In this document: positions 27,238-30,556 of the stretch, piece by piece
Layout of the letters: each line of letters starts with the position of its first letter
Numbering within the stretch: the first letter of the stretch is position 1
Source: Escherichia coli
GTDB lineage: Bacteria; Pseudomonadota; Gammaproteobacteria; Enterobacterales; Enterobacteriaceae
DNA length: 64,000 bases
Reading direction: 5' to 3' (one strand)
Assembly: GCF_024298765.1 (NCBI RefSeq)
Contig: NZ_CP101210.1
The notes under the pieces: generated by a model
The model's input: the letters and a program-made list of their open reading frames with translations, nothing else
What the model was told of the DNA's origin: nothing
The model's database searches: none
Position numbers and translations under genes: made by a program

Positions 27238-30200
27238 TCAGTTAATCGCGAAATAACTGCTATTCACCAGCAAATCCAGCGGTTGGGCATCGGCAATCAC
27301 ATCACCATAAATCAGATCGACGCCGATGCCAGAAAGCGTATCCATCACTAAGGGTAAAACGACTGGCCCGGCGATGGTTTTCATCCCGAGTCGCTGAGCG
27401 TGCCCCTGAATAATCGTAATCAGCATCTCATCCATCAAATTACCCTGCACGTTGGCGCATAACTCACCATCAAGTAGCAGGTAATCTGCCATATTCGCTT
27501 TCAGCGAGTTGAAGATTTGCAGATCGCGGCCCACCTGGCTGAGCACTATCCGACATCCCGCCAGCCGCAGTTTTTGCACGCTTACTGCGTGATCTAAAAT
27601 CGCTTCAGCCGGAATAATCAGATGTAATAACCGTGGTGGTAGAGGGCTATTTTCCAGCTGCTCAAGCAGATCATTCACCAGCGTGGCGCTACTCAAACCG
27701 GCAACGGAAAGAGGGAGGGCGATGCTTATGCCTTTACTGGCAACCGCTTTTGCGGCCTGCTGGAAAAATTCGTGGAATACCCGTCGGTCAAGAGCATGGC
27801 TAAGTGCCGGATCGCTGAAGCTACGACGAAATTTTTGTTCATCAATAATCTCGCCTTCGCAACTCCAGAGCTTAAGTGAAATCAGCCACAAATTACGCGC
27901 TTCCGGGATCCGCGGCGAAGCGACACCGTGGGCGATCATCATCAACTGATTCTCTTTAATCATCCGCCACTGTTCATCAAGCGACATCGCCGCCCGTTCG
28001 CTATGTGCGGCAGCTTGCTGTGGTTCGTAAACCGTCACCCGGCCCCGTCCACCATTTTTGGAGGCATAACAGGCGATATCAGCCTGCGACATCACTTCTG
28101 CCGCCTGATGATTGTTGTCATCAATCAAGGTAATCCCGGCACTGGCACCTACCCGATGCACACGGCCTTCCCATATAAAGTGATAATCATTCACGGCACT
28201 GATAATGCGTGTAGCGATAAAACGCGCACTTTCGATATTACAGTCTGGCAACAGTAGACCAAATTCATCACCACCGAGTCGCGCCAGCACGTCGCTGGAG
28301 CGCAGCATACTCAGCATCAACGACGCCAGTTCGCGCAGTAAAGCGTCACCCGCCGCATGCCCGGCGCTGTCATTCACCGCTTTAAAGCGATCAAGATCGA
28401 TAAACACCAGGGCATGTCGCTGATGTGTACTGTTTACCGTTTGCAGCAGGATACGCAGTTGTTTCTCAAAACTGGCGCGGTTGGCGAGATGCGTCAGTGC
28501 ATCATGGGAGGCGCTGTAGCTCAGCTGGCGCAGCATTTTGCGTGATTCGGTAACGTCCTGAATCACCAGAACCGAACCAATATTGCTGCCGTCCAGAGTA
28601 CTTAACGGCGTAATACTGTAATGCACGTCGTAACTGCCGCCGCTCCGACAGTGCAACACCACATCTTGTTCGATCGCGGAACGTGAGGTGTCGGCACTGT
28701 AAATGTTCTCCATTAATGGTCCGTTGTCGCCAAAAGTAATATGCAACACCGTCAGGAGCGGAACACCTAACGCTTCTTCCTGCGTCCAGCCGCTCATCTT
28801 CTCCGCCACTGGATTCATAAAGGTAATTTTCATCGCCATATCAATACAGACCACGGCTTCACCGATGGAATCAAGCGTAATGTGCAGGCGCTCTTTTTCC
28901 TGAAACAATGCCTCGTTAAGCTGTTTAACCTCGGTCATATCCATATTAATGCCGAGCAGGCGTTCGACTTCGCCTTCTTTATTCAGTACCCGGTTGGCGA
29001 GGGCGCGGATATGGCGAATACCGTCTTTTACGGTAATGCGAAATTCCAGCTTAAAGGGCGAGCGTGATTGCAACGAATCACGAATCACTTTTTCGGCATG
29101 CTGGCGATCTTCCGGCAGCACGCACTCGTACCACACCTGCCAGTTCGGTTTGATATGCGGAGGAGTTTCATACAGCTCGAACATCCGCTTATCCCAGCTA
29201 AAAATATTCGGCTTCAGCTCCCACTCCCAGATGCCAATCCCGCCCGCTTCGTTAGCCAGCGTGATGCGCTCCATCAGTTGCTGATTCACCTGTTCGGTGC
29301 GTTTTAGCTCGTTAATGTCTTCAATCTGAGCGATAAAATAGAGCGGCGTGCCATCCGTGTGGCGCACCAGTGAGACGGCAAGCAACGCCCAGACAACATC
29401 GCCATTGCGGTTGTAGTAGCGTTTTTCCATTGAATAGGTGTTTATTTCACCGCTTATCAGCTTTTCAACCTGTTGGAGATCTTTATTGAGATCCTCCGGC
29501 CAGGTCAGTTGCTGAAAGGTGAGTCCGCGCAGCTCTTCCTGACTGTACCCGAGAAACTGGCAGAGCGCTTTGTTGGTTTGCAGCCATTGTCCCTCGGTGC
29601 CCACTAACGCCATACCGATAGCGGAATATTCCATGGCGTTCCGAAAACGGGTTTCGCTTTCGGAAATGTGTTTGCGTTCCGCACGAAAGGCATACATCAC
29701 CATGGTCATGATGTTGGCGGGCAGCAGGATCAGCAAAAACGGTAGCCACGGCATATGGCTCATCAGGTATGTACGCGGCGTAGCAAGCAGGGAGGGATCC
29801 GCGGCCATCATCAGCGACACCATCATCACCGTGGTAAGGAAGATCAAAAAGGCTTCCATTCGTGGCAGGCGCACGGCGCTCCACATCAACAGCACAATAA
29901 TGAAAGTAAAAGGCCACGGCAGATACAGCATCGAAAGCCAGCTTAACGTCAGTGTGATGGCTAACGTGAGCAGCGACTCAAAAAGCAACCGTGGGTTGCG
30001 ATGGCGCAGCAGATAGTGTGGTTTAAATAACAATCCCAGCGGCACCAGTGCCAGAGCGCCGATGGATTCTGACAGTACCCATATCAAAAATGCCCTGAGA
30101 GGATCGTCTCCGGGCGTCAGCAGGACAACCAGACCCCCCCCCCAACAGAGGCGGAACAATGGCGCTGCCGAGTGCCAGACGCAGCCAGTCAGCCAGATTT

Positions 30201-30556
30201 TGCAAGGGGTTATACCACGGCAGCAATTTACGTAGCAGCACTGCCCCGACCACGGCTTCAACCATATTGATGGTCGTCCAGGTCATGTTCAGCGAGCTGG
30301 TGGAAAAAAGCAGGATGGATGCGGCGATATTTCCCAGCGAACAGCTCAGCGCAATTCCCGGCCACATGCGCCCGGCATGGCGATAAAACGCCACCATCAT
30401 GATGGACGTCGGGAACCACAGTGGGGCGAGTTGGGTGCCAAACTGCGAAAGCTCAAGCGAGAAAAGGGTAAAGATAAACGAGACTAAACCTAAACTGACC
30501 AGGTGAAGCAGCGGGTGGGGCAGGGCAATTAATACATGCTGTGATTGTTTGCTCAT
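27238..30556 (-). pseudogene. dgcE: diguanylate cyclase DgcE (YegE; MASE1-PAS-GGDEF-EAL) disrupted by +1 frameshift in a homopolymer
   Basis: Two overlapping minus-strand ORFs (30023-30556, 177 aa MASE1 N-terminus; 27238-30261, 1007 aa remainder) join across a 10-nt C run at 30134-30143 (G10 on the coding strand); removing one base restores ...PPLLGGGLVVLLTPGDD... Confidence 0.8.

Follow-up and report, generated by a model that had tools for sequence, protein, structure and literature searches.

Is the dgcE (yegE) gene of this Escherichia coli strain truly broken at a long homopolymer, and if so, what kind of break is it? The gene lies in a stretch of 64,000 nucleotides (the window), in which we read a run of ten C at exactly 30134-30143 of the plus strand (...CCAGA CCCCCCCCCC AACAG...), corresponding to G10 on the coding strand. 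We favour, with a probability of roughly 0.7, the reading that dgcE contains a hypermutable homopolymeric G tract, seen here in its +1 out-of-frame state, and that the frameshift is a genuine slipped-strand event. The features concerned are given below; the nucleotide coordinates of the MASE1 and GGDEF regions were converted by hand from codon positions.

27238..30556, minus strand: dgcE (yegE), frameshifted, 3319 nt, assigned from the ORF list, K-12 comparison, Pfam and synteny
30134..30143, minus strand: poly-G tract of dgcE, putatively hypermutable, beginning with the third base of codon L138 and ending with codon 141; present state +1 out-of-frame, in-frame state G9
30023..30556, minus strand: N-terminal 177-aa ORF with ATG start and stop TAA at 30023-30025
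27238-30261, minus strand: 1007-aa ORF with TTG start, a mechanical call from the ORF list
27238..30045, minus strand: 935-aa downstream ORF with GTG start (codon 171), the remainder as annotated by gene callers
29674..30502, minus strand: MASE1 coding region (codons 19-294; Pfam PF05231, E = 1.4e-35 in the repaired protein), interrupted at codon 141/142
28042..28512, minus strand: GGDEF catalytic domain coding region (codons 682-838; Pfam PF00990, E = 5e-45), beyond reach of the N-terminal reading frame

The original prediction held that the C run splits dgcE within the MASE1 domain and that one base fewer would yield a continuous MASE1-PAS-GGDEF-EAL protein of about 1105 residues, and these claims are borne out. 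The ORF list contains the 177-aa and 1007-aa frames, overlapping at 30023-30261, and deletion of one G in silico joins them into a single ORF of 1105 aa, reading ...AIVPPLLGGGLVVLLTPGDD..., which differs from K-12 DgcE at 10 amino acids and is otherwise intact. [quoted passage not shown] As the tract occupies codons 138-141 and MASE1 spans 19-294, the break falls inside MASE1. The gene had also been named correctly, as both the close match to K-12 DgcE and synteny indicate: the order yegD-alkA-dgcE-udk-dcd-asmA is found in K-12 and in all RefSeq records fetched, and the window is colinear, with dgcE at its conserved position between alkA and udk. RefSeq flags dgcE as 'frameshifted' in 11 of 11 off-length records fetched, including those whose dgcE has the same length as that of the window (3319 nt).

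The 177-aa ORF consists of 141 residues in the DgcE frame, which reach to about the middle of MASE1, and a tail of 36 out-of-frame residues; its residue 141 is Gly where the K-12 counterpart has Val (V141G). The 935-aa ORF holds the second half of MASE1 together with the PAS regions, GGDEF and EAL. Translation of each tract length shows that a change in length toggles the reading frame between intact and broken, with predicted products of 1105 aa for G9, 177 aa for G10, and 145 and 146 aa for G8 and G11. GGAGGCGGT would represent a locked-ON form of the dgcE tract. Within the 64-kb window, C10 is the sole homopolymer of at least 9 bases; other G/C runs reach at most 6 (42 runs of 5, 3 of 6 and 0 of 7-9), and under an i.i.d. 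model 0.13 G/C runs of at least 10 would be expected.

How does the tract vary across public genomes? An uninterrupted G run is present in some E. coli lineages and is not found in K-12 or O157:H7; K-12 has an interrupted G6TGTT (GGGGGGTGTT) at this site. A survey of 5,413 complete E. coli genomes gave, for those with identical 44-nt flanks, G8 in 5, G9 in 30, G10 in 61 and G11 in 9 cases, after the identity-band allele counts were corrected by subtracting 36 partial 100% matches per short query (5415 minus 5379 records). A single 3.3-kb dgcE haplotype, identical with 0 SNPs, occurs with G8 in PEC1009, G9 in TUM18780, G10 in DXMF6-3R and GCA_026009515, and G11 in O111:H2 12A. Likewise, in one clone with 0-5 SNPs over a 40-kb flank the tract is 9, 10 or 11 long; a set of 3 SNPs, absent from the G9 and G10 strains, is common to three strains with G11 that come from Germany, Switzerland and the USA, and tract length is therefore heritable. 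Several isolate series are uniformly G10 (five Ec-042-T, four MRSN, and the AR dog and cat isolates), and in-frame G9 isolates are found within a mostly G10 clone. The EAEC 042 reference (NC_017626.1) shows an analogous +1 state, G9TT from G8TT.

At the level of contigs, the exact 177-aa product of the window (P0004) is encoded by 90 contigs of the NCBI, ENA and Logan collections. Together with the G8 (202) and G11 (17) products, these G10 contigs compare with 378 intact window-type proteins (NCBI, ENA metagenomes, Logan), and products of the M54R clone type give 556 G10, 112 G11 and 6 G8 versus 18 intact; clonal sampling makes these contig numbers too high, and intact proteins are undercounted relative to the short fragments because identity is demanded over 1105 aa. 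In-frame versus out-of-frame numbers are thus 30 versus 75 for complete genomes, 378 versus 309 for window-type contigs and 18 versus 674 for M54R, against a neutral expectation of one-third, with clonal sampling and the exact-match rule as confounders.

Could the tenth C nevertheless be a homopolymer-length miscall in a strain that is truly G9 with an intact dgcE? G/C homopolymers of 9-11 bases are a classic leftover error in long-read assemblies, and the tract, as the sole run longer than 7, is the most error-prone site of the window. In addition, G9 is the state of the haplotypes closest to the window over 24 kb in complete genomes (TUM18780, BS74R-D, the IAL72xx isolates and others); of 5,426 complete E. 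coli genomes none was identical, the best reaching 98.9-99.5% over 24 kb. Near-isogenic complete genomes of one study vary in tract length (N73 G8; N137 and N196 G9; N169 G10), a variation of which some could be long-read error. However, an artefact should be irreproducible in independent near-identical assemblies, and G10 was reproduced: in an independent assembly (L015) that differs from the window by 1 nt in 8,534 (approximately 8.5 kb), in a second (L019) with 14 differences, and in FDAARGOS_1059 and DXMF6-3R. The 90 contigs with the exact 177-aa product come from several sources, each isolate series has a uniform tract state, and tract length segregates together with SNPs. General indel noise in the assembly was considered and rejected, as a comparison with the close relative TUM18780 over about 48 kb of the window revealed no other coding indel, the remaining indels all being intergenic. 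The original prediction left open whether the frameshift was a sequencing error or genuine; the population data speak for a genuine frameshift, and we regard an error in this single assembly as unlikely, though deserving some weight. Less credible still is that the split gene is functional, either because RNA polymerase or the ribosome slips on the G run and so restores the frame in a fraction of the products, or through re-initiation (for example at GTG codon 171) that would produce an N-terminally truncated active cyclase. A GTG and a TTG codon do occur near the TAA that ends the 177-aa ORF, GTG codon 171 being 20 nt upstream of the shifted-frame stop, and the degenerate dgcE of Shigella flexneri still made a contribution to c-di-GMP (PMC11327459). 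Yet in our restart-codon scan the codons near the stop, GTG codon 171 included, lack a Shine-Dalgarno-like motif, which among the candidates is found at the GTG of codon 228 only, and scans for promoters, terminators and restart codons gave no convincing internal expression signal in dgcE. Moreover, DgcE activity in the curli pathway needs MASE1, even in the hyperactive EAL-deletion form. Transcriptional slippage in E. coli is documented on long A/T runs rather than G/C runs, which speaks against this route to split-gene function.

A different question is whether selection has kept the tract as a stochastic ON/OFF switch of DgcE, by which clonal populations would hedge between matrix-producing and non-producing cells. 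The tract shares with contingency genes an uninterrupted run of at least about 8 within an ORF, a length that varies among near-identical isolates, and length changes that toggle the reading frame. If this reading is correct, the dgcE G tract would be a simple-sequence contingency locus in mismatch-repair-proficient E. coli, with a slippage rate that gives mixed populations and selection that keeps the ORF revertible. The four length states on identical haplotypes, and the G9 in-frame isolates inside a mostly G10 clone, are in line with it. Furthermore, the frameshifted genes of the window, ST410-type and O111 strains examined contain no second lesion, and two substitutions, one of them non-synonymous (V141G), were needed to create the uninterrupted tract. 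The state distribution in the M54R clone, on the other hand, is heavily shifted toward broken forms, and the move of a G11 subclade from +1 to +2 resembles drift in a dead gene. The uniform G10 state of five serial Ec-042-T isolates speaks against very fast switching, and second lesions do occur in some frameshifted alleles (E47, L018, L024). Irreversible knock-outs elsewhere, namely a non-repeat +1 insertion in O157:H7, an IS element in S. flexneri and 1456delC in soil strains, are independent events that suit a pattern of recurrent loss equally well. E. coli is mismatch-repair proficient, and repeat-based contingency genes are not a known trait of this species. Taken together, selection for switching seems doubtful to us, somewhat less so than a miscall, and we are equally hesitant to extend it to the lineages with an uninterrupted run that it would cover (among them the haplotype group of the window, the 042 type and the M54R clone, apparently ST410).

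How might the out-of-frame state of the hypermutable tract, our preferred reading, have arisen? Comparison of the alleles suggests that two T-to-G changes converted the K-12-type GGGGGGTGTT, which encodes Gly-Gly-Val, to a G9 that encodes Gly-Gly-Gly and was still in frame, in some lineages. G runs of such length would slip at replication, as known from slipped-strand mispairing, so that gain or loss of a single G would outpace substitutions nearby. Public genomes indeed show the tract varying between 8 and 11 G at a pace well above that of mutation in neighbouring DNA, which makes it very probable that the break is real and recurs, and is not a sequencing error. In the G10 state of the window the DgcE frame is left after Gly141 and terminates 36 codons further on, yielding the 177-aa fragment with the first half of MASE1; the PAS-GGDEF-EAL part would then remain untranslated from the native start. 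Loss of one G, from G10 to G9, would restore dgcE, which is possible and probably occurs. The frameshift had been suggested to be reversible, and reversibility is plausible in principle because G9 isolates occur inside a mostly G10 clone.

Production of CsgD, curli and cellulose is triggered at the top level by DgcE, which requires MASE1 for its activation by RdcA/RdcB (PMC6510439), and a natural dgcE frameshift elsewhere abolished curli, with successful complementation (PMC6029578). The strain of the window is therefore predicted to be DgcE-null, with lowered induction of the curli and cellulose matrix. A residual product from the broken gene is possible, since expression of the degenerate dgcE of S. 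flexneri raised c-di-GMP and its deletion lowered c-di-GMP (PMC11327459).

Phase variation by slipped-strand mispairing in homopolymeric tracts of coding sequences is known from the poly-G of Neisseria lgt and pgtA (PMC2192423, PMC2193922), of meningococcal hmbR/hpuA (PMC3786947) and of Klebsiella rmpA (bioRxiv 10.1101/2025.09.12.675794), and from the poly-C of Mycobacterium tuberculosis glpK (bioRxiv 10.1101/717272; PMC10334774). As in these genes, dgcE contains an uninterrupted G/C run within its ORF at which single-base gains and losses toggle the frame, and several heritable lengths coexist among close isolates. In contrast to them, the dgcE tract is limited to some E. coli lineages, with the interrupted G6TGTT in K-12 and O157:H7, and its state distribution in one clone is closer to post-inactivation drift. 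Similarly, Clostridioides difficile pdcB is a phase-variable c-di-GMP enzyme controlled by invertible DNA. Heritable stochastic on/off control of a c-di-GMP turnover enzyme would in both cases reprogramme surface and biofilm traits; in pdcB, however, regulated switching by site-specific recombination of a promoter element has been demonstrated, whereas dgcE would switch by replication slippage within the ORF.

Loss of dgcE has precedent. Our literature search returned no description of the dgcE/yegE tract; its coverage did not extend to the 2016 work of Povolotsky & Hengge, which is said to report dgcE loss in nine pathogenic strains. An IS insertion interrupts dgcE in S. flexneri (PMC11327459), soil-persistent E. 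coli combine 1456delC with curli loss (PMC6029578), and in the E. coli pangenome few genes are pseudogenised as frequently as dgcE (PMC13322260). We had suspected from a reported 2808-bp 'dgcE_2' marker that O157:H7 shares the tract frameshift, which proved wrong: in the yegE pseudogene of O157:H7 Sakai the tract is interrupted as in K-12, and the frame is lost through another +1 insertion, 35 nt downstream, which leads to the identical out-of-frame stop. These recurrent natural losses, by frameshift in Sakai and the soil strains and by IS in S. flexneri, resemble that of the window in knocking out dgcE, with predicted loss of the DgcE input to PdeR/DgcM/MlrA and CsgD. They differ in being unique events at non-repeat sites and effectively irreversible, while the lesion of the window lies in a run that gains and loses bases again and again.

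A recurrent, lineage-specific knock-out run would help explain the variation in biofilm and Congo-red phenotypes among close clinical isolates, the rank of dgcE among the most 'pseudogenised' genes in pangenome surveys, and the appearance of split dgcE ORFs as spurious accessory genes or serogroup 'markers'. Calling dgcE intact or broken requires a read-level check of tract length. The dominance of the frameshifted state in the apparently global multidrug-resistant M54R clone (556 G10 and 112 G11 contigs versus 18 intact) provides a lead toward pathoadaptive or transmission-linked loss of matrix. Should the tract indeed prove to be a contingency locus, slippage of a single G would toggle a master diguanylate cyclase and, with it, the making of curli and cellulose.

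The dgcE (yegE) gene, which lies on the minus strand of the window at 27238-30556, is split by a +1 frameshift in a run of ten G on its coding strand, as the original prediction had proposed. The run and the two reading frames that it separates are as follows:

30134-30143 exactly, read on the plus strand: C10 run in the context CCAGA-C10-AACAG (from the sequence)
30023-30556, minus strand: ATG ORF of 177 aa (mechanical ORF list)
27238-30261, minus strand: TTG ORF of 1007 aa (mechanical ORF list)

The ORF list agrees with the predicted split and with its overlap at 30023-30261, and one-frame translation of 27238-30556 loses the DgcE frame past ...PPLLGGG. 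Removal of one G yields a single ORF of 1105 aa that differs from K-12 DgcE at 10 amino acids, and in it a domain search finds MASE1 (19-294), three PAS regions, GGDEF (682-838) and EAL (898-1088); this is the continuous protein that had been anticipated. The tract starts at the third base of codon 138 and ends with codon 141, and the break is therefore in the middle of MASE1, the domain to which it had been assigned. No other homopolymer of at least 9 bases occurs in the 64-kb window, where the remaining G/C runs stop at 6, and a G/C run of at least 10 is expected 0.13 times under an i.i.d. expectation for the window. The window otherwise carries the dgcE haplotype of DXMF6-3R and of TUM18780, a close relative of the window; a private non-synonymous SNP at 29165 (codon 464, ATT to ACT, I464T, second PAS region) sets it apart from all other fetched dgcE genes of this haplotype.

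At the tract site K-12 reads TTG GGG GGT GTT CTG (G6TGTT, Gly-Gly-Val) and the window G10 followed by T. Two T-to-G substitutions separate K-12 from the in-frame uninterrupted form, G9T (Gly-Gly-Gly, V141G).

Table. Tract alleles (G run, then T) among 5,426 complete RefSeq E. coli genomes, as full-length exact matches to 97-99-nt allele-specific queries; 36 partial matches per query were subtracted.
Allele; frame; genomes
G8T; -1; 5
G9T; in frame; 30
G10T; +1; 61
G11T; +2; 9
G8TT; in frame; 9
G9TT; +1; 1 (EAEC 042 reference NC_017626.1)
K-12 allele; in frame; about 1,390

Direct inspection of the fetched loci confirmed these tract states; RefSeq calls dgcE a "frameshifted" pseudogene in 11 of 11 off-length records fetched, and 3 of 3 G9 records have an intact DgcE protein. 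In 36 complete genomes the alignment of the 97-nt tract region is 100% identical but covers less than 80% of that region, and dgcE may be interrupted or rearranged near the tract in these. Two records are titled "Escherichia coli 042": NZ_CP042934.2 (4.69 Mb; G10T, of a second haplotype, the M54R type) and NC_017626.1 (5.24 Mb; G9TT) differ in chromosome size and dgcE allele and are not the same strain.

Tract length changes much faster than the surrounding sequence. Five strains with no differences over the 3.3-kb dgcE (tract excluded) carry G10 (DXMF6-3R and GCA_026009515), G11 (O111:H2 12A), G9 (TUM18780) or G8 (PEC1009). In the M54R haplotype, which comprises UK_Dog_Liverpool, WCHEC, AR and N isolates and which we take to be probably ST410, the tract is 9, 10 or 11 long against 0-5 SNPs in 40 kb around dgcE. 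In this clone G11 occurs in three strains (Germany, Switzerland and USA), and they share three SNPs that are absent from G9/G10 strains, so that G11 is an inherited subclade state rather than random noise; G11 also occurs in a further clone (TKEC21-59, Turkey; STS63-2-E, Switzerland). G10 is found throughout the isolate series Ec-042-T (n=5), MRSN (n=4) and the AR dog and cat isolates. An uninterrupted run, toggling of the frame and length polymorphism among near-identical isolates are all seen in dgcE, as in genes subject to homopolymeric-tract slippage. The probable mechanism, intragenic homopolymer slippage, matches that of Neisseria lgt, pgtA and hmbR, M. tuberculosis glpK and Klebsiella rmpA; the likeness is structural, and the behaviour that defines such genes is high-frequency reversible switching with a phenotype. 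No description of the dgcE G run was found in the literature searched, a search that did not extend to Povolotsky & Hengge 2016.

Could the tenth C be an assembly or sequencing artefact? The complete genomes nearest the window over 24 kb are G9, and runs of G9-G11 are a typical residual error of long reads. Against this, the tract is the sole coding indel relative to TUM18780 over ~48 kb, the others being intergenic, and G10 is shared with the independent, near-identical assembly GCA_026009515.1 (one base different in 8,534). The G10 state is also widespread in public collections, as indicated by searching about 15 billion proteins for exact matches.

Table. Contigs per dgcE haplotype; counts are inflated through clonal sampling and biased against the exact 1105-aa match.
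Window type: G10 product 90, G8 202, G11 17, intact G9 (1105 aa) 378
M54R type: G10 product 556, G8 6, G11 112, intact G9 (1105 aa) 18
042 type (G8TT/G9TT tract form): +1-state product 326

The frameshifted state is reproducible across projects. Sources of the 177-aa product of the window include SRA runs assembled in Logan, a metagenome assembly from ENA, NCBI drafts and two genomes from NCTC, with G10 in 10 of 10 loci read that carry it, and a cluster of N-terminal DgcE truncation fragments has 267 distinct members. We therefore consider an artefact unlikely and a genuine tenth base probable. Second lesions were seen in some tract-frameshifted alleles: an internal stop per RefSeq in E47, a second split, into ORFs of 726 aa and 146 aa, in one contig (L018:4512-7319), and insertion of a Mu-like transposase gene past codon ~640 in another (L024:4512-8534).

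Comparison with TUM18780 also revealed changes elsewhere in the window. A single-base deletion at 55558 (GCC-CACC versus GCCTCACC) lies outside any homopolymer, in the wzxC-wcaK intergenic stretch of TUM18780. A 1,195-bp insertion between yegJ and yegI (21536-22730) encodes a 326-aa transposase and is presumably IS5-type, judging from sequence and size. Within the ibs/sib toxin-antitoxin repeat region, an insertion of ~1.44 kb (17801-19243) encodes overlapping 173-aa and 283-aa ORFs, an arrangement that we take to be typical of IS150 (InsJ/InsK); Rfam places Sib RNAs on either side, at 17488-17630 and 19263-19411.

Loss of dgcE is not confined to the tract. In O157:H7 Sakai, yegE (ECs_2874, L031:14250-17568) is a 3319-nt pseudogene with an interrupted, K-12-type tract and a single-A insertion (gene position 458, CCTC[A]TCAGG, +1) 35 nt downstream of it; the Sakai and window frameshifts reach the same out-of-frame stop from unrelated causes, which at the sequence level reads as convergent inactivation. 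In S. flexneri, dgcE is disrupted by an IS insertion (PMC11327459), a pangenome of 2,377 genomes ranks the gene with those most often pseudogenised (PMC13322260), and dgcE inactivation in pathogenic E. coli has been reported before (Povolotsky & Hengge 2016, cited in PMC11327459). Among the marker genes given as specific to the O157 serogroup in PMC12472240 (Table 1) is a 2,808-bp "dgcE_2"; as its length is that of the split gene's 935-aa downstream ORF, it is probably the second half of a frameshifted dgcE and not a distinct gene.

What does the frameshift mean for the strain? DgcE stands at the top of the cascade that triggers CsgD and matrix production, its activation by RdcA/RdcB needs MASE1, and deletion of MASE1 abolishes even a hyperactive EAL-deletion DgcE (PMC6510439). 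Soil isolates that carry 1456delC, a naturally occurring dgcE frameshift, make no curli, a defect that was complemented in trans (PMC6029578). In the window the native frame stops after residue 141; gene callers start the remainder at a GTG at 30045 (codon 171), overlapping the end of the short ORF, and, of the candidate restart codons, a Shine-Dalgarno-like motif accompanies just one, the GTG at codon 228. The early frame end, the need for MASE1, the poor restart signals and the curli precedent together predict a DgcE-null phenotype, with the caveat that dgcE of S. flexneri, though degenerate, still made a contribution to c-di-GMP (PMC11327459). As dgcE and alkA are transcribed towards each other, the frameshift should have no polar effect on the genes beside it.

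Whether the tract is a selected on/off switch, a contingency locus, is a separate matter. Four length states in a single haplotype, G9 isolates within a mainly G10 clone and the lack of a second lesion in the frameshifted alleles of the window, ST410-type and O111 strains examined would fit such a switch. However, out-of-frame alleles far outnumber the intact one in the M54R clone, whose G11 subclade went from +1 to +2, serial isolates are stable in tract length, further lesions are present in E47 and the two contigs, and other lineages (Sakai, S. flexneri) carry irreversible knock-outs, which makes a switch rather unlikely. On the conservative reading, DgcE is lost repeatedly because the dgcE tract is a mutational hot spot, and some niches may tolerate or favour this loss.
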